NCBI GenBank assembly: GCA_963835575.1
Contig: CAWIGG010000004.1
Location: 928,001-992,000 of the forward strand
Length of the DNA stretch: 64,000 nucleotides
Direction of reading: 5' to 3'
Source of the DNA: an uncultured Spirochaetota bacterium
GTDB lineage: Bacteria > Spirochaetota > Brevinematia > Brevinematales > JAOACQ01
The notes under the pieces are model-generated. The model was not told the DNA's origin. It searched no databases and saw only the letters and a list, made by a program, of their open reading frames with translations. Made by a program: the position numbers and the translations under genes. This document shows positions 25,922-45,617 of this stretch, one piece after another (the first letter of the stretch is position 1; each line of letters starts with the position of its first letter).

Positions 25922-26419
25922 TTATTTTTTATCTACTTTTCCTTCAATAATTTTCTTGAATTCCTGAATTTCACCTTCATTATTAAAATATCTCAGGGGA
26001 ATTAAAACGGCGTAGTATGTGCCCATGGACAATATGATAAAATCATGGTAATACCGGACGCTTTTGATTTCAGTCCACAGGATCATGTGCTCCCCTTTTT
26101 CGCTTTTTGTGTTGATGCCTTCATCCTTTGCCTCATATTCCTGGTCCAGATTGAGCGTCTCGTCCGCCTCGAACATCGGTTTGATCCTGATATAGTAGGA
26201 AGCGAAAAGGAAGAGCGTGATGACAAGGCTCGCGGCTATGGCGACGGCGAGATTGGCGGCCAGCGGGTTAATACCGAACCTGCCGGCCAGAGACGATCCG
26301 AATTTGAACATGAAGCTTCCGGCGAAAAGCACGGCAAAAATCAACACATATCGTGTTCTGGCGTAAAGCAGATGGTAGCGCCTGTATTCCTCCAGGGTAA
26401 GCTTTCCTTTGAAAATCAT
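25922..26419 (-). CDS. YcxB-like membrane protein
   Basis: two TMs then W.EI......IP.RYF C-domain. Confidence 0.7.
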   Translation of the reverse strand: MIFKGKLTLEEYRRYHLLYARTRYVLIFAVLFAGSFMFKFGSSLAGRFGINPLAANLAVAIAASLVITLFLFASYYIRIKPMFEADETLNLDQEYEAKDEGINTKSEKGEHMILWTEIKSVRYYHDFIILSMGTYYAVLIPLRYFNNEGEIQEFKKIIEGKVDKK

Positions 26420-26447: not shown

Positions 26448-27620
26448 CTAATGAGTAAAGAGCCTGATGCCGGTATGGAACATCACCATGCCGTATTCAC
26501 CGGCGGCTTTGACGCAGTCTTCGTCGCGGATGGAGCCGCCCGGCTGTGCTATATACTTTACATTACTTCTATAAGCCCTGTCAATATTATCCCTGAATGG
26601 AAAGAATGCGTCTGAAGAAAGGCATACGCCGTCAAACTGTTTTATAAAATTTTCTTTTTCTAGAGGATTGATAAGTTCCGGCTTTTTTGTGAGGCTGGCA
26701 GTCATGATCGTCTTTTCATTTTCCGAGAGCTCATCCCAGAGCAGGACCTGATCGACCAGATTGGCCTTTTCGGGTTTTTTGAGATTTTCCTTAAACGCCA
26801 GATCGAGGACTTTCGGATGCTGCTGGAGGAACCATTTGTCCGCCTTGGAACAGGCGAGCCTCACGCAGTGGACCCTGGACTGCTGTCCGGCGCCGGCCCC
26901 GATAACCTGCCCGTCATAGGCTATGCAGACGGAATTGGATTGAGTGTATTTCAGTGCGATAGTCGCGACAATGAGCGTCTGGAGTATATCCCGGCTGAGG
27001 TCCTTATTTTTCGTAACGATATTTTTAAAGAAGTTTTGATCGATTTTAACCGTATTTCTATTCTGCTGAAGTTTAAAACCGAAAAGCTCCCTGGTTTCAA
27101 TCTCAGGGCCGTCATAACCGGGGTCCATTTCCAGTATGAGGTAGCCGCCGTTCTTTTTTGTTTTCAATATTTTCAGCGTCTCAGGATCATATCCGGGCGC
27201 TATGATCAAATCAGACACCTCGGTTTTCAGGATTTCCGCCAATACTGCGTCGGCTTTCCCGCTCACGGCGGCCGCGTCGCCGAAGGCGCACATCCTGTCG
27301 CCGCCCCTTGCCCGCACATAAGCCGTCGAGACAGGTGATAAATCCGCTGTATCTATAAACTGGGATTTTCTATAAGTTTCTGTCAAAGGTTTCGCTATGG
27401 CCGCGCCTGCCGGGCTTGTGTGCTTAAATGAAGCCGCGCTTTCAATGCCCGTCGCGTCTTTTAGTTCTTTGACAAGCTGCCATGCCGATAAAGCGTCCAG
27501 GATATTGATATAGCTCGGCTTGCCGTTCAAAACTTTTAAAGGCATTTCCCTGCCGCCAAACAGTACTTTCGCGTTTTTCTGATGCGGATTACAGCCGTAC
27601 TTCAGTTCTAAAATAGACAT
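26448..27620 (-). CDS. purH: AICAR formyltransferase (short PurH lacking the IMP cyclohydrolase domain)
   Basis: begins at LKYGCNPHQ; FKHTSPAG, KYTQSNS, GQQSR, SDAFFPF, QPGGS.RD, R.FTH. Confidence 0.9.
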   Translation of the reverse strand: MSILELKYGCNPHQKNAKVLFGGREMPLKVLNGKPSYINILDALSAWQLVKELKDATGIESAASFKHTSPAGAAIAKPLTETYRKSQFIDTADLSPVSTAYVRARGGDRMCAFGDAAAVSGKADAVLAEILKTEVSDLIIAPGYDPETLKILKTKKNGGYLILEMDPGYDGPEIETRELFGFKLQQNRNTVKIDQNFFKNIVTKNKDLSRDILQTLIVATIALKYTQSNSVCIAYDGQVIGAGAGQQSRVHCVRLACSKADKWFLQQHPKVLDLAFKENLKKPEKANLVDQVLLWDELSENEKTIMTASLTKKPELINPLEKENFIKQFDGVCLSSDAFFPFRDNIDRAYRSNVKYIAQPGGSIRDEDCVKAAGEYGMVMFHTGIRLFTH

Positions 27621-27645
27621 AAATCCCCTCTTTTAAATTATTTTC

Positions 27646-28434
27646 TTAACCGATCCGCAGACAGCGCATGCTGAGCGAGCTGAACACTTCCTCATAAGTA
27701 AATGTGATTTCTTCATCATGTTCAGTCAGGGCCAGGCTGTACAATAAGGGCGCATAATGGTCGACCGTCGGGACAGACATCTGCGCCGCATGGCCCGCCT
27801 TTTCATAATGAATAAGGCTGTTGAAGTCCCTCTTATTGATTTTATCCGCAACCCATGCGTCAAATTCAACGGCCCAGTCATAAGGCGACAGGTCTTCTTT
27901 CGTATAAATCATACGGAGATTATGGACGATATTCCCGCTGCCTATGATCAGGACTTCTTTATTCCGGAGCGGCTTGAGCCTTCCGGCAAGGTCATAGTGG
28001 TACTGCATGGGTTTGTAAAAATCGATGCTGAGCTGAAAGCATGGAATATCCGCTTTCGGGAAGAGGTGCCTGAGTATGCTCCATGCGCCATGGTCCAGGC
28101 CCCATTCGTTATCTTCCTTAACCTGAGGAAGCAGTTTCAGGACTTCGCCGGCGTAACCGGGCGCGCCGGGCGCGGGATATATAACCTGATAAAGTTCATC
28201 CGGGAAGCCGTAAAAATCATAGATTGTTTCCGGCTTCTTATTCATACTGACATATGTGTTATCAGTCAGCCAGTGCGCGGATATGACAAGTACGGCTGAC
28301 GGCTTTTGTTTTAATTCCCGGCTCATTATCTCCAGGCTTTTTGTAAAAGGGTTTGCCTCAATCGCGTTCATCGGGCTGCCATGGCCGATAAAGAACACGG
28401 GCATCGGTTTGGAGCTTTGAATTTTTAACGGCAT
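27646..28434 (-). CDS. ygiD: 4,5-DOPA extradiol dioxygenase
   Basis: GHGSPMN, ISAHW, YDFYGFP, GLDHGAW, GSGNIVHNL, PT.DHY.PL. Confidence 0.92.
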   Translation of the reverse strand: MPLKIQSSKPMPVFFIGHGSPMNAIEANPFTKSLEIMSRELKQKPSAVLVISAHWLTDNTYVSMNKKPETIYDFYGFPDELYQVIYPAPGAPGYAGEVLKLLPQVKEDNEWGLDHGAWSILRHLFPKADIPCFQLSIDFYKPMQYHYDLAGRLKPLRNKEVLIIGSGNIVHNLRMIYTKEDLSPYDWAVEFDAWVADKINKRDFNSLIHYEKAGHAAQMSVPTVDHYAPLLYSLALTEHDEEITFTYEEVFSSLSMRCLRIG

Positions 28435-28671
28435 AAAAACCCCGGCTCGGTACTCTTTTCCGAATTACTGCTAATTACTGATACTGATAATAAAAATTAT
28501 AATCAAATGCATGTAAAAACTCAAAAAAATCGGAAAAATCAAAAAAAGCGCCGGCCCTTTTACCGGCCCAAAGCGCATGGCTTCCCTTTGAGTTAGTTAT
28601 AAAGCTATGCGTTAGATTGACAAAACCGGTCAATTTCATAATAATCTATATTATTATAAAAGGGGAATAAT

Positions 28672-30447
28672 ATGCTCGGGAAGATCAGCGTCCTGTTACT
28701 GATAATATTCGGCGCTTTAAAATGGGCCTATTCCGATAATATAACGCTCTGCTACCACCAGTTCGATCAATCACTCCGGAACATCTATTCGGTTTTACCG
28801 GATGTTTTTGAATGGCATGTAAACTATCTCCGGGAAAATAAGATCGATATTATCACATTGGACGATATGATTAAAGATTATGCGGAGACTCAAGCGGTCG
28901 GCACCAATGTCCTGATCACCATTGATGACGGCTGGACCAACAACTTGAATATAATGTCTTTTATTCAAAAAGAAAATGTCCCGGTCACAATTTTTTTGAT
29001 CGCGAATGGAAACAATGTCAGCAATGAATATTTTTCGGCTGCAGATATTGAGAAACTCAAAACCATTCCTGAAATAAGCTTCGGCTGTCATAGCTTCAGC
29101 CATATACCGCTGGTCCGTAAAAGTGATGCGGTTCTGCAGAAAGAAGTGGTTGAATCCCGGTCCATTCTGGAAAAGATGCTGGGAAGAAAAGTCGATACCT
29201 TCGCCTATCCTTACGGCGCTTTTGACGCCAGGACGCAAAAACTGGCGGCTGAAACTTATAATCTTTCATTCGGCATAGTAGACGGGCCTAATACGATCAA
29301 TCGGACCAGGTCCGATATCCGGAGGGATGTCATCTACCGGACGACAACTTTCGGCGAATTTATCGATCTTTTGGACAATATCCGCGGCAGACAGGCGGAC
29401 AAAGGGTATCATGTGGTGAATCTGGGCGCCGGGTCCGAAAAGATCCGTTATTTTAATTATGTTAAAGTACGCCTTTATGAGTTTCCCGTCAAAAAGAGCA
29501 AAAAAACCTTTCTTATCATTCCCGGGACTGCTATCGGCCCGGCCTGGTTTTATAAAACAATCGACAGCCTCACAAATTCGGGAATTCAGACCTGCGTCAT
29601 GGTCCCCAGAAACAATAATATACCATTCTGGAGACCGGACCGGGAAATGAGTGTGATCACCAACTGGACGCTGGATGTTTTTCAGAAGGACTTGAAAAGT
29701 ACGCTGGATTACCTGAATAAAGATGACCGGGATATTGTGGTTTTAACCTGGAACGATGGTTTTGACATCCTGGTCTCTACCCTTCTCCGCTATAAGGACA
29801 GCGGCTCGAAAATCAAGGGCATATTCGGCATCAATCCTTCCCTGCGTGAAGCCCCGGATATTAAAGACTTTTTCGGCAAACGGCTGGAAGATTACAACCG
29901 GAAGGTTTCGACCGGAGATTTTACAAATGAATCGCTCCATTTCTTTCTCACTGTCAAAACACTGTCGGATATGGCGATCCTGAAGCCGGACCGGATCAGT
30001 CCTTTTTCTTTTCACATGGGTTACGGTATAAAATCAAATTATGATCTGCTCAAGGCATTCATTGATGATCAGTCTGACCCGGACCTGTCGCTGGACAATC
30101 TCGATGAGGATTATACCATGAAGGAATTCCACAACGCTTTTTTTAAACCGCTGCCGGTATTCAGCATGGTCATTCCGGTGTCGCTGGAACGGGATATCAG
30201 CGAAATCTGGACCAATCGGTTTACATGGCAGGAAAAGCAGATTACCGGAAAGGAAAACCTGAAAATCCCCGTGTTTTATATCTATTCAACCGGCCATCAA
30301 ACCGCTTTTGCCCGGCTGACCAATACATTCAACGGTCTGGAACTGGAAGGAGACATTTATTACGAAGGGTTATCCACCGTGGAAATGCTTTTATCTTCCT
30401 TCGTTTCCGATGATGTTACAAATAAACTCATGAAATGGTTGAAATAG
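28672..30447 (+). CDS. exported polysaccharide deacetylase (CE4) fused to an alpha/beta-hydrolase-like C-domain
   Basis: signal peptide; LCYH, ITIDDG, HSFSH, FAYPYG; C-terminal half fold assignment tentative. Confidence 0.75.
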   Translation: MLGKISVLLLIIFGALKWAYSDNITLCYHQFDQSLRNIYSVLPDVFEWHVNYLRENKIDIITLDDMIKDYAETQAVGTNVLITIDDGWTNNLNIMSFIQKENVPVTIFLIANGNNVSNEYFSAADIEKLKTIPEISFGCHSFSHIPLVRKSDAVLQKEVVESRSILEKMLGRKVDTFAYPYGAFDARTQKLAAETYNLSFGIVDGPNTINRTRSDIRRDVIYRTTTFGEFIDLLDNIRGRQADKGYHVVNLGAGSEKIRYFNYVKVRLYEFPVKKSKKTFLIIPGTAIGPAWFYKTIDSLTNSGIQTCVMVPRNNNIPFWRPDREMSVITNWTLDVFQKDLKSTLDYLNKDDRDIVVLTWNDGFDILVSTLLRYKDSGSKIKGIFGINPSLREAPDIKDFFGKRLEDYNRKVSTGDFTNESLHFFLTVKTLSDMAILKPDRISPFSFHMGYGIKSNYDLLKAFIDDQSDPDLSLDNLDEDYTMKEFHNAFFKPLPVFSMVIPVSLERDISEIWTNRFTWQEKQITGKENLKIPVFYIYSTGHQTAFARLTNTFNGLELEGDIYYEGLSTVEMLLSSFVSDDVTNKLMKWLK

Positions 30448-30451
30448 CAGT

Positions 30452-31636
30452 ATGGCTGCAAAGAGTCGGATTAAGACAAAACCCAATCCTCCCGGCGCGA
30501 AAGATGATAAAGGCATAATAATTGAAAAACCATCCGGGCAGAATCCCGAAAGACTTGCTTCTCTGGACGCCCTCAGAGGTTTTGTTATGTTCTGGATCAT
30601 CGGAGGAGACGATATATTAAATAACATCGCGCTTATTATCCATAACAGGGTTTTCAGCAATATTACGGTCTATTTCACACAGCATGTAAAGTGGGAAGGG
30701 TTCCACTTTTACGATCTGATTTTTCCTCTGTTCCTGTTTCTATCCGGGGTCAGTATCGCTTTTTCAATTAAAAACCGCCTCGATAAAGGCATGGAGAAAA
30801 AAATCCTGCTGTTAAAGATCATAAAAAGAACTCTCATACTATTTGCTCTTGGGTTGATATTCTACGGAGCCCTGCAGTTCAAAGGATTTGAGCATGTCCG
30901 TATTTTCGGGGTCCTACAGCGGATAGCGCTCGGTTATTGTTTCGCCGCTTTAATCGTGCTTTACACAAATATGAGGGTGCAGATTACTGTGTCCGTCATT
31001 ATTTTACTCATCTATTGGGCCCTTCTGAAGCTTATTCCCGTGCCCGGCTTCCCGCCCGGGACGCTGACTATCAATGGAAATTTAGTCGGATATATCGACC
31101 GGTCTTTATTCCTGCCCGGCCAGCTCCTCTGGCGCACATTTGATCCCGAAGGCCTTTTGTCGACGCTGCCGGCAATTTCCACGGCTCTCCTGGGAGTGTT
31201 CACGGGCTATTGGCTCAAATCGGGGCAGAAAGAAATTATTAAAACAGCGGGTTTATTCGGCAGCGGGGCCGTTTTATTGATAACCGGCTCTATCTGGGGT
31301 ATTTTCTTTCCGGTCGTAAAAAACCTCTGGACCAGCTCTTTTGTCCTTGTGGCAGGCGGGTGGAGCCTTTTATACCTGGGCTTGTTTTATCTTCTGATCG
31401 ATGTGTTGAAGCTGAAAAAATGGGCGTTTATTTTTATCATTATAGGGGTCAACTCAATAACCATTTATGTCGGTCAGGAAATTATTAGTTTTTACGGTAT
31501 TACCGGATATTTTGTCAATGGGATTCTGAAATGGATACCCTTTCAACGCGGATTGATATTGGCATGCTGTATTTTAACCGTAAAATTATTATTTCTGGCA
31601 TTCTTAAAAAGGCATAAAATCTATTTGAGAGTATAG
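30452..31636 (+). CDS. HGSNAT/NagX-like membrane acyltransferase (DUF5009 family)
   Basis: RLASLDALRG, DLIFPLFLF..G, GVLQRI, DPEGLLST, KNLWTSSF, GVNSI. Confidence 0.88.
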   Translation: MAAKSRIKTKPNPPGAKDDKGIIIEKPSGQNPERLASLDALRGFVMFWIIGGDDILNNIALIIHNRVFSNITVYFTQHVKWEGFHFYDLIFPLFLFLSGVSIAFSIKNRLDKGMEKKILLLKIIKRTLILFALGLIFYGALQFKGFEHVRIFGVLQRIALGYCFAALIVLYTNMRVQITVSVIILLIYWALLKLIPVPGFPPGTLTINGNLVGYIDRSLFLPGQLLWRTFDPEGLLSTLPAISTALLGVFTGYWLKSGQKEIIKTAGLFGSGAVLLITGSIWGIFFPVVKNLWTSSFVLVAGGWSLLYLGLFYLLIDVLKLKKWAFIFIIIGVNSITIYVGQEIISFYGITGYFVNGILKWIPFQRGLILACCILTVKLLFLAFLKRHKIYLRV

Positions 31637-31736: not shown

Positions 31737-31796
31737 CTATCCCTGAAAAACGTCCGTCTTATCCCTGCCGATGAAAAGATCGTCGCTACCGCATTT
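31737..31796 (-). pseudogene. displaced duplicate of the last 20 codons of the 35425-39171 gene
   Basis: encodes KCGSDDLFIGRDKTDVFQG* versus KCGSDELFIGRDKTAVFQG*; 49/60 nt identical to 35425-35484. Confidence 0.9.
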
Positions 31797-31820
31797 TAAC
31801 CTATTTACATTTTAATATTT

Positions 31821-32288
31821 TTATTTTGCTTTTAAATATATTTTTGTGGATGTAAAAGCACGTGCATCCATGTTCCCATTAAAGTTGATTGTATGGCTTG
31901 GTGTTTTTGTTCCTTTCTCATTAATGAGTTCATAACCACTCGTTAAAGCATGTTCAATCATTGCTTTTTCAACTAAATTAATGCACTTTTCTGCTTGCTG
32001 GCCACTTTTACATATTATTTCTCCAAAAATAAATAACCTTTCGCCGCTTAGTGCATCCCTTATAGCATTCATCATTCTAAGAGAATTTAGATGATTTTTT
32101 AACCTTGATCCTACATCTTTGCTTTTACCGATATAGATTGGAATAACCTTTTCTCCGTACCTTCTGCAAAACATATAAACACCTGTTTTCTTAATAAACA
32201 TCTCCATATTAGGTATTATATATACCAGCTTATCTTTAGTCCCATCCTCCATTGTTATTGAGTTATGCCATTTAATATCAATATCCAT
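31821..32288 (-). CDS. GIY-YIG nuclease family protein
   Basis: GVYMF...PIYIGKS....RL..H, later E and N (LINEKG). Confidence 0.75.
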   Translation of the reverse strand: MDIDIKWHNSITMEDGTKDKLVYIIPNMEMFIKKTGVYMFCRRYGEKVIPIYIGKSKDVGSRLKNHLNSLRMMNAIRDALSGERLFIFGEIICKSGQQAEKCINLVEKAMIEHALTSGYELINEKGTKTPSHTINFNGNMDARAFTSTKIYLKAK

Positions 32289-32375
32289 GTGATGTCTCCT
32301 TTAGTAAATTGAACATTCTCGTTATTATTGAGAATTAGACCAAAAACATTTACCATCAATAAGTAAAATGTTCTT

Positions 32376-34124
32376 TTAGAATCTTATTCCTAAAAGCCCG
32401 CCGTCATCTTTTGCGTCAGTTAAAGTCTTCCTCACATACTTATCAAGGTCAAACCCTTTGCTAAAGTCTTTTACAGGCATTGTGTCCGAATTCATGGTGC
32501 AGATGTACTGGAATTTTAGCCTTTCTGATTCTTTTGCTGCCAATTCAAGAGCCAAAGCTTTTTGCCGCTCATCTACATCCGCAAAGATTATGCTGTCATG
32601 AATAAGAAGCCTGGGAGAAATATTTTTTTCTGCCCAGATTTGCGCAAGCACGAGATCGTAACAGAATATCTTCATGTTACCGATACCATAACTTCCAGAG
32701 CGCTCAATAATGACTCCAAACTTAAAACCCGTCTTTGAAACATCTATTGAGAGCGTACCCGGCGCTTCATAGAGTGCTTTCGAGTTAGCATTGAAAAGAA
32801 GGATTGCTTTTTCCTTCTGAACTTTCCTTTCTGACAAATCTATACTTGCATGCTGTTGAAGAAGCTCCATCTCGACCGTTACAGCACTTTTCCCTTGTTC
32901 AAATATTTTCAGATTTTTTATCTTTATATCCAAGTCCTTCAATTCAGAAACGGTTTTCTGATGATTATTCTGCAATTGAGTATATTCCTCAAGGGCACCA
33001 TGCTCTTGCAGAACAAGCAGCAGTTCCACTTTCTTTGAGGACAGCTCCTGCTTTAGCTGCTCTCTCCCTGCTATTTTACTTTTTATATTCTCTATCTCTA
33101 TCTTCAAAAAATCTTTTCTGTTAGCAACAACCTGTTTGTGAAAAGATAAAACATCGTCCAACCTCTTAGTCACAAGGTCTGGCAAAGTTAATCCCGCTTC
33201 TTCATAAACCTTAGTTACAGATTCTGGTCTTGCGTCAACTTCTTCCTTTAGGCTTGCTTCATAGTACTCAAGAAGCCTCTTGTCACTTATGTTCTCATTA
33301 ATCAGCTCATGGATCCTTCTGGTCAAATCGTTTGCATCCGTCTCAATCTTGTTATATTGCGGATGCACCCTGAAGCTTTTTAATTGTTCGCCTTCCTGCT
33401 TCGCCTGCTCTTCACTCCTAACCTTTAATGCCTCGAGCTCTCCAAGAGTTCCCATGAAGCTTGCAAGAATCCCTGTCTGCGCTTCCTGCTTAATCTGGGC
33501 AAGAATTTTCACTCTGTCCTTCAGGACTTGCCATTTCGAAGAAAACTCCCAGCCGAGACCAAGAAGGTATGCGTTGTTCACTTGAATATCCCACTCGTGC
33601 TGATTCTTGTATTGCTGGAATGGGTTAAGAAATGCCCCGCTTTGGCCGTTGCGCCTGACCAAGTAAGAAATCATGCTCCTAAAAGTGGGGACGTACTTCA
33701 TATCGCCAAAGGAAGGTTTAAGGTCGAACATCAGAACTCCAAGTACTCTGATCCAGTCGTTTCTCGACAATACTTTTGCGCCTGTTTCTTTATCTGTGTC
33801 TGGAGTAATTGGCCATCCAGAGCAATCTCCCTCAATAACTATTTTGTTTTGTTCAGAAATGTTTCTGGTCACAGAGTGTCTTTTTCCTGCTATGTCAAGG
33901 TCTATAGTAAATGACCAACCCTCCATCTCTTTTTTGCTGAGAGTATCACCTTTATTTGCTCCGAAGCAGAAATGGATAATTTCAATAAGAGTTGACTTCC
34001 CAAGTCCATTTCTGGAATCTTTCTTTGTGGACTCTTTCGTTCTTTCAGCAAGAATTACGTTAAATCCTGACTTAAACTCAATATTCTTGAACGATGACTT
34101 GTTGCTCTTTATTGAATAAATCAT
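32376..34124 (-). CDS. lmuB: SMC-like ABC ATPase of Lamassu/ABC-three-component system (DUF2326-type)
   Basis: Walker A DSRNGLGKST, coiled coil, GSYG signature, Walker B LLIHDS, DVDERQ. Confidence 0.85.
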   Translation of the reverse strand: MIYSIKSNKSSFKNIEFKSGFNVILAERTKESTKKDSRNGLGKSTLIEIIHFCFGANKGDTLSKKEMEGWSFTIDLDIAGKRHSVTRNISEQNKIVIEGDCSGWPITPDTDKETGAKVLSRNDWIRVLGVLMFDLKPSFGDMKYVPTFRSMISYLVRRNGQSGAFLNPFQQYKNQHEWDIQVNNAYLLGLGWEFSSKWQVLKDRVKILAQIKQEAQTGILASFMGTLGELEALKVRSEEQAKQEGEQLKSFRVHPQYNKIETDANDLTRRIHELINENISDKRLLEYYEASLKEEVDARPESVTKVYEEAGLTLPDLVTKRLDDVLSFHKQVVANRKDFLKIEIENIKSKIAGREQLKQELSSKKVELLLVLQEHGALEEYTQLQNNHQKTVSELKDLDIKIKNLKIFEQGKSAVTVEMELLQQHASIDLSERKVQKEKAILLFNANSKALYEAPGTLSIDVSKTGFKFGVIIERSGSYGIGNMKIFCYDLVLAQIWAEKNISPRLLIHDSIIFADVDERQKALALELAAKESERLKFQYICTMNSDTMPVKDFSKGFDLDKYVRKTLTDAKDDGGLLGIRF

Positions 34125-34348
34125 TTCGATGCCCTCCGCAGAAGGCCGTCTTGGAACTCGACTGCACCCATAATGAATAATAAATCGAGACCGAGTGTAA
34201 ATCTTTCAAAAGTCTTTACCTCTGGAAGTATATTGACGGTATTCCATAATGCAGTGACTGTATGGTTGTTATCTATGTATTTAAGAAGCACTGCGCCTAC
34301 GCTAATCAAAGAATTCGTTAATCTTATGTGCTTTGTTGGAAGGATCAT
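34121..34348 (-). CDS. lmuC: ABC-three-component middle component (LmuC-like)
   Basis: 75 aa, MILPTKHI...SL...GA..L...F...LD.LF..G; ATGA overlaps with both neighbours. Confidence 0.8.
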   Translation of the reverse strand: MILPTKHIRLTNSLISVGAVLLKYIDNNHTVTALWNTVNILPEVKTFERFTLGLDLLFIMGAVEFQDGLLRRASK

Positions 34349-35094
34349 TTTTCGAACACCTCACACTTCTCAAAAAGATAAACTAGGACAGCAAGTCCAG
34401 CTGCCTTCTGTTTGAAATTGTTACTCCCACCAGACGAAAAATCAAGCAATGCCATAAACAAATTATCACCCTCAAGCTCTTCAGCGTTTTTAAGCTGCTC
34501 ATATTTCATAACGAAGCCTTGCTTTAAGCGCTCTCCAAAATCAATGTCAGGAGATTTTCCAATATAGTCCCCGACCTGATTTGCCTGAATTGATCCCATA
34601 TTTATTAATGCCTCAATGCTTCCTGATAAGTTATTCTTTTTAATTTTATCCTTTGGAGGTATAACAGTAAAATCATCGCTAGGCATAGATTGACCAGAAA
34701 TCAAATATTTTGTGACAACATTCAACTCAGCAAAGGTAACATTCACAACCTCGGCCTTTGTACATTCCCTAATCCAATCCTCATGTTCCTTTTTAATCTG
34801 AAAAAGCATTACATCAGTATATGTATTTGGTTGATTGTCTATCTTTGTATGGCAATTAGGACATAACAATAAGAGGTTTGGGTAGCTATTTCTTTCAGTA
34901 TCACTCATGTTTGTATCGTAGCGGGCTGAGCCAGGGTTTTCTCCTTTTATGTGTGCAATCACTCCTATGATTGCGGCATTGTCAAAGTCATTACCAGGTT
35001 CAATAAGCTCCCGTCTACAATCAGGCAAAGCGCACCTGTTGCCACTTTTTATGCAAACAATCTTCTGCTGTTTCGGGGGAATATTCCCACTCAT
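34345..35094 (-). CDS. lmuA: HNH endonuclease effector with ABC-3C C-terminal domain (LmuA-like)
   Basis: SGNRCA.PDC, IAHI.G....ARY, NLLLLCPNCH..ID; ends YLFEKCEVFEK. Confidence 0.85.
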   Translation of the reverse strand: MSGNIPPKQQKIVCIKSGNRCALPDCRRELIEPGNDFDNAAIIGVIAHIKGENPGSARYDTNMSDTERNSYPNLLLLCPNCHTKIDNQPNTYTDVMLFQIKKEHEDWIRECTKAEVVNVTFAELNVVTKYLISGQSMPSDDFTVIPPKDKIKKNNLSGSIEALINMGSIQANQVGDYIGKSPDIDFGERLKQGFVMKYEQLKNAEELEGDNLFMALLDFSSGGSNNFKQKAAGLAVLVYLFEKCEVFEK

Positions 35095-35424
35095 TGCCTC
35101 ACACCAACCTCTATCCTTCTAGACAATAAACGGGGTAAAAACAGCTTCATAATTTACATTCTCCTTTCTACTAAAGACTGATAGGAGTTTTATAATTCCA
35201 GCTAAATGAATTGTAGTATAAAGAGATAAAAATCGCAAAAAAACACCGATCTTTTTGAAAATTAAGTCATGTTCGTACTTTTTAATAATAAATATATTTA
35301 GAAATCTCATGAATGTTAAACTAATTCTATTTTTCTTCGTGCCTTCCCGCCTTGTTAATTATTTCTTTTCAAATGAGGTAAGCTTTCGTCGGATGAACTT
35401 TTTTATTGATAAAAATCAAATAAT

Positions 35425-38400
35425 TTATCCCTGAAAGACGGCTGTTTTGTCCCTTCCGATAAAAAGCTCATCGCTGCCGCATTTCGGGCATTTATTATCG
35501 ATAAACAATTCTGATTTTTCAGAGCGGAAATCGCAGTTTGTACAGACCGTGTTTTTAGCCTGGTAAAGGGCCTTATCCGCCATGTCGATAAGCAGTACCT
35601 TGATCCCTTTTTTTATTCCTTCAATTTTTTCCCAATCCGCGCTCTTTATGTCCTGTATTTCAAAAATCTCCCTTAAACCGTTTATTTTGAGGTTTTCGCA
35701 GATAGCGGCCTCATTGTTGATGAGAGAAGAAACGCCGAAGCTGGAGGTGACATTTAACAGCTTATCGTTCAGATTAACGGATGTGCTTTTAATGTTGACG
35801 CGCAGTTTTTCCGCGACAATGGCCGCGTCATTCAGGGTCGCTTCGGGCAGGACGATGAGGAACTCCTCGCCGCCGTAACGCCCGGCTTTATCGTAGCTTC
35901 TGAGGGATTCTTTGATGATTTTACCGATCTGGGCCAGCAAAACATCGCCGGCCGGATGCCCATGCGTATCGTTAAAATTCTTGAAGTGATCGATATCCAT
36001 GAAAATAAGGGAAAGGTTTCGGAATGTCCGGAGCATGACGCGGTCATTCAGGAATTTCAGGATGGTATGCTTGTTGGCCAGGCCGGTCAGCTCATCTGTT
36101 GAAGCCTGCTGAAGCAGGAGTTTGTATTCCATGTACTTCCGTATATGCATATCAATATTGACGACCAATTCCCGCTCATCGACTGGTTTGTTCAGGTAGG
36201 CCAGGGCGCCTTTCTGCTTCCGCTCCAGCATGAGCGTCTTGTCTGTCATTGCGGTCAGGAACAGGATGGGGGTTTTCTTAAAGTCAGGATTGGATAAGAG
36301 CTGGTCGTGCAGTTCGTCGCCGCGCATTTTCGGCATATTATAATCGCTGATGATCAGATCAGGGCGGTATTGATATATTGCCTCAATACCGCTTTTTCCG
36401 TTCCCGGCCATGATGAAATTTTTATACCCGGCTTTGATCAGGTATTCCTTAACAATGTCCCTGATATAAAAATTATCATCTACAATAAGGATAACCCCTT
36501 TCTGCGGTTCAAATTCATTGTCTTTGTTCAAATCCGGAAAATCAGTGACTATTTCATCCTTCTGGCCGGAATCAATCAGATCGGAAGTGATGATGCTGTG
36601 GAATTCCTTCCGCTTGCCGGACTCGGAATTTTTAATATCAGCCGCGTCTTCGAGTATTTCCAGGTCCTTGAATATGTCTTTTCCCTTTTTCAGTTCAAGG
36701 ATAAAACGGGAGCCTTTATCAGGCCCGTCCGATTCGGCCCGGACCGTTCCCCTGAGATAACCTGTCAATTCCTTGACGAAAGCCAGGCCGATGCCTGTTC
36801 CTTTAAACCTTCCGTTGGCGCCGTTTTCAAGCTGTTCAAACCGGCCGAAAATGACATCGAGCTTATCCCGGGGAATACCGATCCCATTATCAGTAATGGA
36901 GAGCTCAATAGATGATTCTTTATCCTGGAGAGATATGGTAATTATACCGCTGCCGGGGTCGACAAACTTCAATGCGTTTGAAATAATATTATTAAGAATT
37001 TCCTCCAGTTTATCCACATCCGTATAGAAATCATTGATCTCATAGGAAGGAAGCCGGCAGTGGAACTGGATTTGAGTGGACATCGTCGCCGACAGATAAA
37101 AATCCGTTATATGTTCGATATAAGACCGGAGCATCAGCTTCTGAACATTCAGCTTGACGCCCTGCGCGTCCATTTTAGCCAGGTCCAGAAGCCGGTCTAT
37201 CGACATTTTTAATTTTAACGAAGCGTTATAGATGATGCTGTATCTTCGGATTATATTTTTAAAATCCTGGGTATTATCATACCGCAGGCCCAGGTCGGCA
37301 GTGTTCAGAATGATCATAAGCGGAGAACGGAAGTCATGCGTGATATTGGCTATAAAATCATTTTTTAGCCGGTCCAGCTGTGAAAGCTTTTGATTTGAGT
37401 CCTCAAGAGCGGCGGTCTTTTCCTGGATTATTTCCATATTCTTCATAATCTCTTTCTGCGCCGATTTCAGGCTCAGATTCGCTTTCTTCAAATTATCCAG
37501 CACCAGGGCCCCATGAATAGCGCTCGAAAGTTCGATGGAAAGAGTGTTATATAATCTTTCATCGACAGGCCCGGGTTCAAAGATGATATAACCTATCAGT
37601 TCCTGATGAATATGGATAAAATAAACCAGGAATGTATGGCTTTCTTTATCATAAAGCAGGCTTTCCAGCTGGTTTTTAGCGTCTTTTGAAATAGACCTGC
37701 TTTTTGGTTCCGCCCTTTTCCCATTGATTAATGAAAAAACAAGACGTTCTTTTGCTAATGTATCTTTTCCGTCCGGGAATAAAAAGATATGGCAATTCGG
37801 AACATTGATCCTTTTCAGGCTGGATTCAAACACATCCAGCAGTTTGTTAATATTAAACGTTATGACAATATTCTGGCCGATTTCCTGCATGACATGAGAA
37901 CTGCCCCGCCTCAGGACATCGCTGAAGCCTAAAACAGCCTCTATATGCTCTTGAATGACTATCTGAGACTTCAGCCATATATTCTCAGCCTGTTCACTCT
38001 GTCCCTTCAGGCATGGCGTGATAAAAGAACGGAATGTCAGAATATCCTGCTGTAAGTTGTAAAGCTCTTCAACGGTGATACCATGAGCAAAAATATTGCT
38101 TTCAAGCGTTTTTAAAAATCTGGTTTCGCTTTTATTTTTAATATCAGACTGAAAGCCGGAAAGAATTTTATCGAAATCCAGGATCTTGAGAGTGAGATTG
38201 CTTGCTTTAAAATCCTGCTTCAATTTTGCGCTTTCGATATTTCCGGCGGCGGTTTTTCTGTTTTCAAGAATATCAATTTTGACCCGGTCAAGCCTGCTGG
38301 AATCACAGCCGCAGGACCTTCTGATGCGTATCTCTCCCTGGACCGGAATAAGAAGGGGGGCTTTTTCACCGCCGATCATCTTCAATATAGTCAGACAGCC

Positions 38401-39171
38401 CACATATGCCTGCTGATAATACGGATAATAAACGGAAGTAAAAGAAGGATTGGAATACCGCCCTCTATCGCCGTCCTCCCAGCTGGTCAGCGCGATATCA
38501 TCAGGGACCCTGAGGTTCCTTGCCTTCAGTTCGTCCAGGATCAGCAGAGATTCGTATGTATACATGGACATGATCGCGTCTACTTCGATTTTTCTTTTAT
38601 CAAAAAGGATTGCCGCGATTTTTTTGGCCCGTTTAACGAAGAACCAGTCAACAGGCTTGTCCAGGTCCTCGTTTGTTAAAACCAGTTCCTTTTTAAAGAG
38701 CCCATGCTCTTTCATATATGCTTCATAGTCCTGATACCTGTTGTCCGGAATGATCGGTTTGACAAAGACTATGTTTTTATAATGATGCTTTTGTGTAAGG
38801 TGTTCAAGCAGTTCTTTTACATGTTCTCCGCCCTTCATATGAATGGAAGTGATGTTTTCCACTTCCCTGCCGATACTGACCAACGGCAGGGGCATCAGGT
38901 CTTTGAGAAGGCCCAGAAATTTTTTTGGGTTTTCCGCTATATCGCCCGACCAGCCCAGAAAAAGAAGACCGTCGGGCCTGACTTTCTTGATCATGGCGGT
39001 CATCAGTTCCAGGGGATAAGGATAGCGGTTCGCGTTGATATAAGTTTCAATCGTAAAACGGACAAGATTAAAATCATTTTCTTCGGCCGCTTTCATAGCG
39101 CCGGCGAGCATCTGGCTTTGATAATCATCGACAGACGTATCGCCGATGAAAGCAATCGTTTTTTTTCTCAT
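35425..39171 (-). CDS. soluble hybrid sensor: LacI-type ligand-binding + HisKA/HATPase + REC + GGDEF
   Basis: VPDDIAL...P.FTSV, IRRSCGC; ITHDFRSP, NIISNALKF, GTGIGL; LIVDD, DYNMP, KP; DELTGL, DIDHFK, RYGGEEF. Confidence 0.9.
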   Translation of the reverse strand: MRKKTIAFIGDTSVDDYQSQMLAGAMKAAEENDFNLVRFTIETYINANRYPYPLELMTAMIKKVRPDGLLFLGWSGDIAENPKKFLGLLKDLMPLPLVSIGREVENITSIHMKGGEHVKELLEHLTQKHHYKNIVFVKPIIPDNRYQDYEAYMKEHGLFKKELVLTNEDLDKPVDWFFVKRAKKIAAILFDKRKIEVDAIMSMYTYESLLILDELKARNLRVPDDIALTSWEDGDRGRYSNPSFTSVYYPYYQQAYVGCLTILKMIGGEKAPLLIPVQGEIRIRRSCGCDSSRLDRVKIDILENRKTAAGNIESAKLKQDFKASNLTLKILDFDKILSGFQSDIKNKSETRFLKTLESNIFAHGITVEELYNLQQDILTFRSFITPCLKGQSEQAENIWLKSQIVIQEHIEAVLGFSDVLRRGSSHVMQEIGQNIVITFNINKLLDVFESSLKRINVPNCHIFLFPDGKDTLAKERLVFSLINGKRAEPKSRSISKDAKNQLESLLYDKESHTFLVYFIHIHQELIGYIIFEPGPVDERLYNTLSIELSSAIHGALVLDNLKKANLSLKSAQKEIMKNMEIIQEKTAALEDSNQKLSQLDRLKNDFIANITHDFRSPLMIILNTADLGLRYDNTQDFKNIIRRYSIIYNASLKLKMSIDRLLDLAKMDAQGVKLNVQKLMLRSYIEHITDFYLSATMSTQIQFHCRLPSYEINDFYTDVDKLEEILNNIISNALKFVDPGSGIITISLQDKESSIELSITDNGIGIPRDKLDVIFGRFEQLENGANGRFKGTGIGLAFVKELTGYLRGTVRAESDGPDKGSRFILELKKGKDIFKDLEILEDAADIKNSESGKRKEFHSIITSDLIDSGQKDEIVTDFPDLNKDNEFEPQKGVILIVDDNFYIRDIVKEYLIKAGYKNFIMAGNGKSGIEAIYQYRPDLIISDYNMPKMRGDELHDQLLSNPDFKKTPILFLTAMTDKTLMLERKQKGALAYLNKPVDERELVVNIDMHIRKYMEYKLLLQQASTDELTGLANKHTILKFLNDRVMLRTFRNLSLIFMDIDHFKNFNDTHGHPAGDVLLAQIGKIIKESLRSYDKAGRYGGEEFLIVLPEATLNDAAIVAEKLRVNIKSTSVNLNDKLLNVTSSFGVSSLINNEAAICENLKINGLREIFEIQDIKSADWEKIEGIKKGIKVLLIDMADKALYQAKNTVCTNCDFRSEKSELFIDNKCPKCGSDELFIGRDKTAVFQG

Positions 39172-42990: not shown

Positions 42991-43005
42991 GGATATTTAA
43001 ATTGT

Positions 43006-43035
43006 TTGCATACGATGGGGTGAAAGGAGTATAAT
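43006..43035 (+). promoter_or_regulatory. sigma70-type promoter facing the cassette (Pc-like)
   Basis: TTGCAT-18 bp-TATAAT, 40 bp before the GTT core site. Confidence 0.55.
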
Positions 43036-43119
43036 GTTTAGGAAGTAAATTGATATTAGTAGCGTATATTAATAGTTCTACGCCATGCCACACGAATTAT
43101 AATAAAAAGGAGTAAATTT

Positions 43120-43911
43120 ATGAATAAGCAAATATTGCCAATTCTTATAGCTTATTATTCATTTTTATTTGGTTCATCAATAACAATATTTAAAGATTAT
43201 ATTCAAAAGCATGTTTTTACATTTTTTATTGTTGTTTCAATACTTTGTATAATACCTTTGTTCGTTTTTATTCTTATTAAATTATCTGCTTCATTCGCAA
43301 AATTATTTAGAATTTTATTATTTTACTCTCTTAAAATAAATACATTTTCAATAATAGGTATCTCTGTATTATTATTCTTTTGTGTTTTAATGACAATTAA
43401 TTATTTGAATAAATATTTAAATATTGATCTTATTAATTTTAATATCATTATTCTTAATATCATTTTTATTTTATATTTTATATTTTTTATAAATAAAAAA
43501 ATAAGATTTTTTGAACCTAAAGGACTTCTAATTCAAGAATTTGGTCATATTGAAATATATCTATATCATAAAGGAAAATTACGACACATACCAGATCCAC
43601 CAACTTTACAACTGCTTGGTTATTCAATAAAAGATGTAAATGTAATACCTCATCAAGAATATATTAAATATAAACTTGATTCACCTTTAGAAAGTATTTA
43701 CTCAGTAAAATTTGTTACAATAAATGGAAGACCTGAAATATACATGATAATAAATGGAGAAAAAAGACATATACCAGATGTTGTTACTTTTGATTGGATT
43801 AAAAATGTACGTTCTGAAAAAAGAATTGACAATACATTAGAACCGATTTTAGAAGATAGATTAAATCAATGGAAAACTGGCAAACCATTAAAAAGTTTAA
43901 TCCAGGATTAA
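43120..43911 (+). CDS. hypothetical 4-TM membrane protein with duplicated C-terminal domain
   Basis: AAGGAG RBS; extremely AT-rich; repeats IYLYHKGKLRHIPD / IYMIINGEKRHIPD. Confidence 0.8.
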   Translation: MNKQILPILIAYYSFLFGSSITIFKDYIQKHVFTFFIVVSILCIIPLFVFILIKLSASFAKLFRILLFYSLKINTFSIIGISVLLFFCVLMTINYLNKYLNIDLINFNIIILNIIFILYFIFFINKKIRFFEPKGLLIQEFGHIEIYLYHKGKLRHIPDPPTLQLLGYSIKDVNVIPHQEYIKYKLDSPLESIYSVKFVTINGRPEIYMIINGEKRHIPDVVTFDWIKNVRSEKRIDNTLEPILEDRLNQWKTGKPLKSLIQD

Positions 43912-43939
43912 TATAGGTGTCGCACGGCGTAGAACACGG

Positions 43940-45617
43940 GAGTCTGTCGCAAAAGCTGCCGAATGAATCAGCAATGTCCTATTGAAAATGGCTTTTTTAA
44001 AATTTTATAACTTTCTCGGGTAATATGATCATTCAGTCCGGATTTTAACTGTATCTCCTGCCCCTAATCCTACAATTTAATCCCCAAAGCCGCCATTTTC
44101 CTGAAATTGTACGCAATGCAGACCATATGCCAGATAGTGTTTACACTATCCAGACCGCGGTAGTAAAACCTTCCGAAGTTGAAGTATTCTTTTATCGTCC
44201 CGAAAATGTGCTCGATCAGGCAGGCACGCTCATTGTAAGTTCTTTTACCTTCAATACTCCTAAGCTTTTCCTTCATCTTGCGCCTTAATTCAACCGTTTC
44301 AAAATATTCATACTTTACATTAAACCGTTTGTTTTTTAATGCTTCCAGCTTACCGGCGCAATTTGAAAGCAGCTTGCACTTCCTGCACAACTCGCGCTTT
44401 GGATAGAAACGGTAATTCTTGACTCCCCGATCATTATAAGCTCTTTCCGCGCACATAATCTGGCCTCCGGGGCATTTGATTTTCCTGATATTACCGTCAA
44501 TTATTAATTCACAGTCTTTGGATGTTATTTTATCCTTGTTCTTTCTCTTTTTCGGACTTCCGTCTTCTTCTTTTCCTTCGGGGATATAAAGGTCGATCTT
44601 TTTATCTTCACCGTATTGGATATTATCCGATGTGAAATATCCGGCGTCCAGCGTGAACTTTGTGTCTTCCTTCGGCTCTTCCTGGTGATCCATTACTTCC
44701 TCTATCATCGGGACAGCAAGGTTACGGTCGCTTGCGCAGTCTGATACCATCGCGCCCGTGAGAAATTCATTTTTACTGTCAACGGCGGCCTGGCAATTAT
44801 ACCCGGGGCCGATTGATCCGTTATTCATTTTCATTAACCTGGCGTCTTTGTCTGTCAGGTTTACGCTTTCCGTTTCGTCTAAATTCCTGTCCTCAACTGT
44901 TTTCAGAAATTTATCTATCCCGGATTTCTGCTGTTCAAACTTCTTGAGTTTATTTGCCATCCTTTTGGAATATTTATCATCGGTATTGCTGTTCACCGTT
45001 TCCTGGAGGATTTTTAAGATCTTTTCCTCGATTTTATCCTTTTTATCCCGGAATTCCTTCGCATTCCCCGTGAAATTCCTGTTGGCCGATGCCTTTATCT
45101 TTGTACCGTCTATAGCTTCCAGTTCATAACTGATAAAACCCGATTTCGCCAGAATGTATACCATTTTCCCGAAAATACTAACGATCTCATCCAGGTATTT
45201 ATTGATAAATCTACAGATATTACTGTGGTCAACGGTGGTATTTCCCGCGAGATAAATCGTGTTCAGGTCGTTTTTCATCCTTTTTTCTATTTTACGTGAA
45301 GTGTAAATACCGGACGCGAAGCTGTAAAAAAGGACTTTCAGCATCATTGTAGGGTTGACCGCTTTTGCTCCCGTTGTTTGATTCCGCAGTTTAACGGCAA
45401 ATTCAGCGGGGGAAATATAGCTCTCAACATAATCGTCAATGACTTTGACCAGCGGATTGTTTTCCCTGATTTTGTCGGGATCGACGGTCAGCCAGTAGAT
45501 TTGATCGCGAATATATTTTTTGAATTTCCCCAGCATTTGACACCTCTTAAATATGGTTTTATTATATTCTATCGTAAGTTATGAAAAATGTACATGAAGA
45601 GCTTTTGCGACAGACTC
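43940..45617 (-). mobile_element. IS1182-family insertion sequence, 1678 bp
   Basis: perfect 18-bp IR GAGTCTGTCGCAAAAGCT / AGCTTTTGCGACAGACTC; ACGG duplicated at 43936-43939 and 45618-45621. Confidence 0.95.
44070..45536 (-). CDS. IS1182-family transposase
   Basis: P.MMLK.L.Y....G..SR.IE, IDGTKIKA.A, TD.DARLM, YN.Q, DAGY, IEHIFGTIK. Confidence 0.95.
   Translation of the reverse strand: MLGKFKKYIRDQIYWLTVDPDKIRENNPLVKVIDDYVESYISPAEFAVKLRNQTTGAKAVNPTMMLKVLFYSFASGIYTSRKIEKRMKNDLNTIYLAGNTTVDHSNICRFINKYLDEIVSIFGKMVYILAKSGFISYELEAIDGTKIKASANRNFTGNAKEFRDKKDKIEEKILKILQETVNSNTDDKYSKRMANKLKKFEQQKSGIDKFLKTVEDRNLDETESVNLTDKDARLMKMNNGSIGPGYNCQAAVDSKNEFLTGAMVSDCASDRNLAVPMIEEVMDHQEEPKEDTKFTLDAGYFTSDNIQYGEDKKIDLYIPEGKEEDGSPKKRKNKDKITSKDCELIIDGNIRKIKCPGGQIMCAERAYNDRGVKNYRFYPKRELCRKCKLLSNCAGKLEALKNKRFNVKYEYFETVELRRKMKEKLRSIEGKRTYNERACLIEHIFGTIKEYFNFGRFYYRGLDSVNTIWHMVCIAYNFRKMAALGIKL

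Follow-up and report, generated by a model that had tools for sequence, protein, structure and literature searches.

How a small block of genes comes to be bracketed by two versions of the end of one ordinary gene is the question raised by a locus in the genome of an uncultured Spirochaetota bacterium (GTDB lineage Bacteria; Spirochaetota; Brevinematia; Brevinematales; JAOACQ01; assembly GCA_963835575.1). The window analysed here is the whole 64,000-nucleotide stretch of contig CAWIGG010000004.1 from position 928,001 to 992,000, and positions given without a contig name count from its first letter. On the minus strand of the window lies a gene for a hybrid signalling protein of 1,248 amino acids, the last 19 residues of which are encoded a second time behind an insert of 3,628 nt that carries an ABC-3C system and a GIY-YIG gene (the islet; Table 1). 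Several unrelated genes of the same genome carry the same scar, and for this reason the islet likely arose by capture of DNA from a relative rather than through a dedicated mobile element.

Two alleles of one gene end

The two copies of the gene end, 31737-31796 and 35425-35484, form a direct repeat of 60 nt with 49/60 nt identical, the longest direct repeat listed for the region from 29 to 41 kb. Read on the minus strand they give KCGSDDLFIGRDKTDVFQG and KCGSDELFIGRDKTAVFQG, respectively. Ten of the 11 mismatches fall at codon position 3 (the probability of at least 10/11 there is 1.3e-4), and the differing codons comprise nine synonymous and two non-synonymous changes. Because a copy freed from selection would gather changes at all positions, divergence must have preceded the joining of the copies; thus the two tails are diverged, once-functional coding alleles that have been brought together. 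No decay is visible in the orphan tail. The match begins abruptly at AAATGCGG, the K of a CPKC motif, with the first 8 bases identical in both copies and no similarity 5' of AAATGCGG. By comparison, the tails of the genome's two other zinc-ribbon paralogues match at 26-27/60 nt, and that of the orthologue in the congener G004 at 33-37/60. A Pfam scan of the cargo found no recombinase gene between the two tails, and inspection by eye revealed neither integron-type nor insertion-sequence-type ends at the joint. A sequence-only reading of this DNA had described direct repeats with 49/60 nt identity that both encode the kinase/GGDEF C-terminus, divergence of both as functional coding sequence, a junction at CPKC and an islet without an integrase, and on recount each of these descriptions stands.

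Table 1. Features of the islet and its surroundings in the window
Feature	Position	Strand	Basis
HNH nuclease + CTD10 effector, LmuA-like; PADLOC PDC-M68A	34345..35094	-	Pfam; PADLOC E 8e-84
ABC-3C middle component MC6, LmuC-like	34121..34348	-	Pfam E 4e-15
ABC/SMC-like ATPase, CTD10 + DUF2326, 582 aa; short LmuB-like; PDC-M68B	32376..34124	-	PADLOC E 1e-193; not found among 40 relatives (0/40)
Stand-alone GIY-YIG protein, 155 aa, GC 0.32	31821..32288	-	Pfam
Intact hybrid signalling gene: periplasmic-binding-like sensor, HisKA/HATPase, receiver, GGDEF with 30-aa CxxC..CxxC insert	35425..39171	-	Pfam; alignment; syntenic orthologue 61-62% in G004
Working 3' tail (19 codons + stop), with nearly invariant GR[DN] strand; probable incoming allele	35425..35484	-	alignment
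Orphan tail, 5'-truncated second allele of the gene end; probable displaced resident end	31737..31796	-	repeat comparison; position-3 statistics
AAATGCG, 7 nt: start of orphan tail and end of decayed gene piece on contig C5 (57239-57491)	35478..35484	-	sequence comparison
Intergenic stretch built of repeats present elsewhere in this genome	35176..35398	.	word matches
Four genes of host-like composition (PurH-like, LigB-like, polysaccharide deacetylase, NagX-like), absent from the interval in G004	26448..31636	.	congener comparison

The tail carries G221 and R222 of the aligned GGDEF domain, which are nearly invariant among 70 rows. Because it holds the last conserved GGDEF strand, the domain probably needs it, and its loss would likely break the domain. 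The zinc-ribbon-like insert of 30 residues lies between ALY.AK and GR[DN] (window 35455-35544), is preceded by an extra stretch of ~45 residues, and is intact in 8/70 aligned rows, all from this genome, G004 and the genome G013. Both zinc-ribbon paralogues of this genome (L030, C2:219461-221477; L031, C3:8118-11515) are split by frameshifts or stops, through decay or assembly error. In a metagenome scan the GGDEF region found nothing but generic GGDEF proteins, at 33-48%, and a literature search found nothing on a zinc-ribbon insert in the GGDEF domain of spirochetes.

The same scar at other genes

Whether the end of the signalling gene is special can be judged from the rest of the genome. A survey covered all 3,293 open reading frames (ORFs) of at least 120 amino acids and sought diverged pieces of each within 20 kb, outside ORFs and with one or more ORFs between piece and gene; the count excludes four rows that had proved to be dispersed repeats. 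For 10 genes a cargo-separated 3' piece was located downstream in the same orientation; there were 0 upstream and 0 inverted. Three of these ten rows are doubtful, C2:221537 being a multi-copy element, C2:1340492 having an out-of-frame mismatch pattern (5/28/7) and C2:190155 belonging to a large paralogue family. The seven cases that hold are those of an ArsP permease, an ABC ATPase, an SH3 protein, a hydrolase, an OmpA protein, an NAD-binding protein and the signalling gene. Cargo at the sister loci is mostly non-defence (TauE, DnaB-like, oxidoreductases, PilZ, PIN and others). Joints vary even within one gene, lying 126, 166 and 186 nt before the end of the ABC gene and 110, 110 and 83 nt before that of the hydrolase, the two genes that carry stacked remnants starting at different points, and no common target motif is visible among the sister-locus joints, where flank similarity stays within the 95th percentile of shuffles. 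With this scar at six other unrelated genes, and with joints that vary, the proposal of the sequence-only reading that the 3' end of the signalling gene is an unrecognised integration site or defence hotspot is not supported; on present evidence the site is one example and not a new att site.

The cleanest sister locus (L114:3979-5829; C5:280978-282828) consists of the ArsP permease gene, a TauE gene, a 92-nt orphan tail in which 13/13 mismatches are at third positions, and then an MFS gene. At L029:1-9530 (C5:56020-66530) the ABC ATPase gene has three remnants of its own 3' end behind it, of which the first is fused to a 253-nt piece of the kinase gene; DnaB-like, transposase, oxidoreductase and other cargo lies beyond. 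The hydrolase stands directly beside its conserved neighbour in 4/4 congeners, as against a 17-kb gap here. In that region (L116; C2:1930585-1955037) thioesterase, hydrolase and the next operon are adjacent in 4/4 congeners and stand 6 kb and 17 kb apart in this genome; no thioesterase tail remnant precedes the hydrolase gene despite the 6 kb gain, so that not every gain leaves a scar.

A parallel exists in cyanobacteria of the genus Nostoc. An alignment-based search for systems related to that of the islet gave 57 loci, many of them short (a single HNH sequence gave none). A tyrosine-recombinase hit, obtained with our own profile, is present at 4/57 loci, and the layout of gene, cargo and tail at 1/57 (L205, Nostoc sp. 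C117), where a phosphoketolase/transketolase-like gene is followed by a related ABC-3C system, then by an RHH-PIN pair and last by an orphan tail of 85 nt (L205:6675-13402). A second match to the end of this gene occurs in 47/127 genomes of the genus, a few of them contig-break pieces. Joints were analysed in L205 and 20 fetched regions, of which 19 had been picked for strong second matches and 1 was a control; they lie ~183, 121-114, 88, 85, 82-76 and 63 nt before the end. Some alleles have a 12-nt palindrome, and three of the joint classes lie immediately 5' of it. The tyrosine-recombinase profile, which leaves serine recombinases out of account, matched 0/37 cargo ORFs in the Nostoc regions. 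In L205 and L212 the sequence behind the orphan tail matches that behind the intact stop of L219 and L218, and this shows that in Nostoc the orphan is the old end. In 39 further Nostoc-genus genomes the second matches lie within ~0.7 kb of the gene, except for two on other contigs, and no large island came to light, with the caveat that contigs of a draft assembly can end at islands.

Probable capture from a relative and its rivals

It is rather probable that the islet arose by homology-anchored capture, in which a relative's DNA, bearing its own allele of the signalling gene together with the genes behind it, would have recombined by homology at one end, while its far end would have joined illegitimately inside the resident gene and left the resident's last 60 nt downstream. 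The working tail would then be the donor's, and the orphan the old resident end. Two routes may be envisaged, namely homology-facilitated illegitimate recombination (HFIR) with the joint in the gene, or circularisation of a fragment followed by one crossover. Such an event could be retained, since the gene, with its last conserved GGDEF strand, stays whole, and ordinary recombination between the two tails flanking the cargo would delete or swap the cargo.

The surroundings of the islet speak to the donor. Base composition lends modest support to a foreign origin, with a GC content of 0.377 for the islet vs 0.442 for the signalling gene and a tetranucleotide distance that ranks at the 91.5th percentile among 400 random pieces. 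The first ~250 nt behind the intact stop do not look foreign; they resemble intergenic repeats of this genome, two copies of which lie near the remnants on C5, in keeping with a closely related donor. Tail pieces outside full-length genes are present here only, none being found in 42 other genomes of the class, where 11/11 matches of the tail region lie in ORFs of >1,000 aa. Viral contigs gave 0 matches to the tail pattern; a single 13-residue viral-contig match proved to be an unrelated zinc-ribbon protein. G004 is the only congener with a syntenic orthologue, which there lies directly next to the orthologue of 25922-26419, both cargo and a second tail being absent. The interval is 9.0 kb longer here, the islet making up 3.6 kb of this; the four genes at 26448-31636 likely represent an earlier gain, or a loss in G004, and the acyltransferase among them (30452-31636) was not found in 4 congeners. 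The comparison of orthologues that the sequence-only reading had suggested bore it out in part: G004, another species, carries the gene without cargo or second tail. Neither of the situations that it had named as telling against an insertion is found, there being no full tandem paralogue at 31737 and the interval being variable rather than invariant.

Several observations weigh against capture. The donor and a same-species empty site are unseen, so that neither anchor nor microhomology is visible, and the nearest comparison, G004, is 61-62% identical and lacks the whole 9.0 kb rather than the islet alone. Competence is no more than suggested by ComEC and DprA domains and one pilin-type motif, with no clear ComEA. 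HFIR is reported to be rare and normally to delete resident DNA (Amarir-Bouhram et al. 2011, PMC3240628; Kirchberger et al. 2017, PMC5361080), and the variable joints without a target motif that characterise it are found at the sister loci and not at the signalling gene itself. The 5' pieces in the survey show no excess mirroring that of the 3' pieces (5 upstream, 5 downstream, 1 inverted), though one-sided capture could also leave 5' pieces. The best pair of flanks reaches the 95th percentile of shuffles and does not exceed it. Three of the four ORF-bearing joint classes in Nostoc lie within ~6 nt (88, 85, 82) and could share one core. Finally, the decayed 253-nt piece of the signalling gene on C5 (57239-57491) ends on AAATGCG, exactly where the orphan tail starts, a coincidence that random breakpoints would produce with a chance of ~1% by rough reckoning.

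A second breakpoint on these 7 nt favours a preferred site. It may stem from a recombinase site, from a hot joint or from one old allele that now lies in two halves. An element that crosses over at AAATGCG and supplies a replacement tail, its integrase since lost or acting in trans, is conceivable but doubtful. Seven nucleotides is the usual overlap size of tyrosine recombinases, the two breakpoints overlap on precisely these 7 nt, the repeat starts with 8 identical bases, and the joints cluster in the Nostoc parallel; moreover, 22 of the genome's 23 tyrosine-recombinase matches exceed the cut-off and could act in trans. The nearest of them is ~85 kb from the islet, however, which itself holds no recombinase, and no resolvase-family recombinase was found in the genome (94% complete). 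The C5 junction lacks a replacement tail, the flank there ranks below the best matches to the window flank, and in C2 a paralogue that carries an identical 17-mer across the site continues intact to its stop. Nor would such an element readily account for the confinement of the tail matches in other genomes to long ORFs, their absence from viral contigs, or the six other genes that carry the scar without a common site. The suggestion of the sequence-only reading that the cargo belongs to an element which lost its integrase is not supported. A broader version, which we regard as unlikely, would make the CPKC hairpin of the zinc-ribbon insert a genuinely favoured place of joining, to which a recombinase or nuclease in trans has turned at least twice in this lineage, and would see in the scars here and in Nostoc the footprint of an undescribed integrase-free route of gene capture that adds any cargo, defence systems among it, behind the last 60-220 nt of ordinary genes while giving each a working allele.

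A history in two steps is very unlikely. An insertion with a 7-nt repeat would first have split the old allele at AAATGCG; its left junction would have moved to C5, and a relative's allele with the defence genes would have repaired the gene. Indeed, the C5 piece and the orphan tail meet in register and stand at the same distance from the working gene (82% and 83%, respectively), their mismatch rates outside third positions (21/167 vs 1/40) do not differ significantly (Fisher P=0.08), and the C5 cargo holds a DnaB-like gene. Against this, three events are needed, no inverted ends or shared arms are found at the two junctions, and the C5 piece, with two frameshifts and a stop, lies inside a stack of ABC-gene remnants. 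Least probable of all is that the orphan tail is a deletion remnant of an old tandem paralogue and that the defence genes came separately: the signalling-gene family is expanded in this genome and paralogues, too, diverge at third positions, but the syntenic congener G004 has one copy, no further piece of a second gene copy lies near the undecayed orphan tail, and deletions would not be expected to leave 3' pieces in one-sided excess at unrelated single-copy genes.

The cargo, known systems and what the scar means

The CTD10 match of the effector falls below the cut-off, and MC6 together with the DUF2326 and CTD10 domains of the ATPase completes the operon of effector, middle component and ATPase that defines ABC-3C. 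At the 57 related loci the ATPase is present in 55/57 and the middle gene in 56/57. Close homologues of the effector are scattered among bacteria and archaea, and most islet proteins form singleton clusters. In short Lamassu (PMC12663957), LmuB has ~600 aa with a Walker B of the form hhhhD[Q/S/T/E] and a Walker A of the form Gx4GK[S/T], and HNH is a short-type effector. The islet shares the gene order of effector, small middle gene and ~600-aa ATPase, and its Walker B reads LLIHDS at residue 506 (the hhhhD[S] type). Unlike short Lamassu, its ATPase reads SRNGLGKST and does not match the Gx4GK[ST] pattern, the first glycine being absent, and the PADLOC LmuB models match it weakly; because of the Walker A difference the system is named Lamassu-like ABC-3C. 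By likeness to short Lamassu it is predicted to sense foreign DNA ends and then release the HNH nuclease. PADLOC matches to the GIY-YIG gene are weak (E 3e-5) and are the sole basis for a defence role; the earlier statement that only defence-type genes lie between the repeats therefore holds for the HNH+CTD10 effector, MC6 and the DUF2326 ATPase, and is less secure for GIY-YIG. A homing role of GIY-YIG at the joint is unsupported, since the gene has no plasmid match and none adjoins the 57 related systems. Elsewhere in the window, a very AT-rich segment (43120-45536; GC 0.20-0.30 at 43000-43999) with a 263-aa gene of no Pfam family adjoins a DDE transposase.

A close published layout is insertion with long target duplication (Furuta et al. 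2010, PMC2853133), in which restriction-modification genes of <20 kb without a mobility gene are flanked by direct repeats >30 bp. These often include the stop codon, the target gene is kept whole, and most of the species concerned are naturally competent; breakage of DNA caused by the cargo is suggested there, the mechanism being unproven. The islet resembles this in size (<20 kb), repeat length (>30 bp), want of mobility genes and defence cargo. It differs in that its cargo is ABC-3C and GIY-YIG rather than restriction-modification, that cargo at the sister loci is mostly non-defence, and that its repeats are 83% identical with a synonymous bias marking two alleles, as against 44/46 to 417/423 and 384/412 among published cases (PMC2853133). 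Breakage by cargo, moreover, could not be supplied by the permease or oxidoreductase cargo of the sister loci. Because the restriction-modification criterion separates them, the islet is taken to work like long target duplication and is not filed as a member.

Displacement of 3' ends in arrays of type VI secretion effector/immunity genes and of rhs genes has been proposed to proceed via HFIR (PMC5361080). As there, a module enters behind a conserved anchor and the old 3' end is shifted downstream, with stacked orphan ends like those at the ABC and hydrolase genes; unlike there, where the swapped tip is the toxin, here the tail amounts to another, equivalent allele of an ordinary gene, and what is new is the block of genes that follows. 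Circularisation with a single crossover gave partial duplications of 109-950 bp around foreign DNA without an integrase in E. coli (PMC3240628). That was a laboratory substrate with a cloned piece of the target, whereas here 60 nt at 83% are shared, a poor substrate for a single crossover. Prophage e14 and phage 21 integrate in icd of E. coli and carry a replacement 3' end; the islet likewise has a working replacement tail, a displaced old tail (which copy is old being a matter of probability) and synonymous divergence, but it has no integrase and no attP-like arms, and a fixed site, hinted at by the second breakpoint on C5, has no counterpart in the 42 other genomes.

The islet bears on how defence genes enter chromosomes without mobile elements, which about half of the hotspots of transfer lack (PMC5635113). 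A literature search, mostly outside subscription papers, found no description of this scar genome-wide at ordinary genes. The apparent duplication consists of two alleles, and the same scar brackets permeases and oxidoreductases; together these argue that the repeat stems from the donor's homologous gene and that a cargo nuclease is unneeded. A gene's own 3' end found downstream, with a synonymous bias, offers a simple signature by which captures can be counted, and Nostoc provides a tractable locus for a test. The value of the finding lies more in the genome-wide pattern than in this site.

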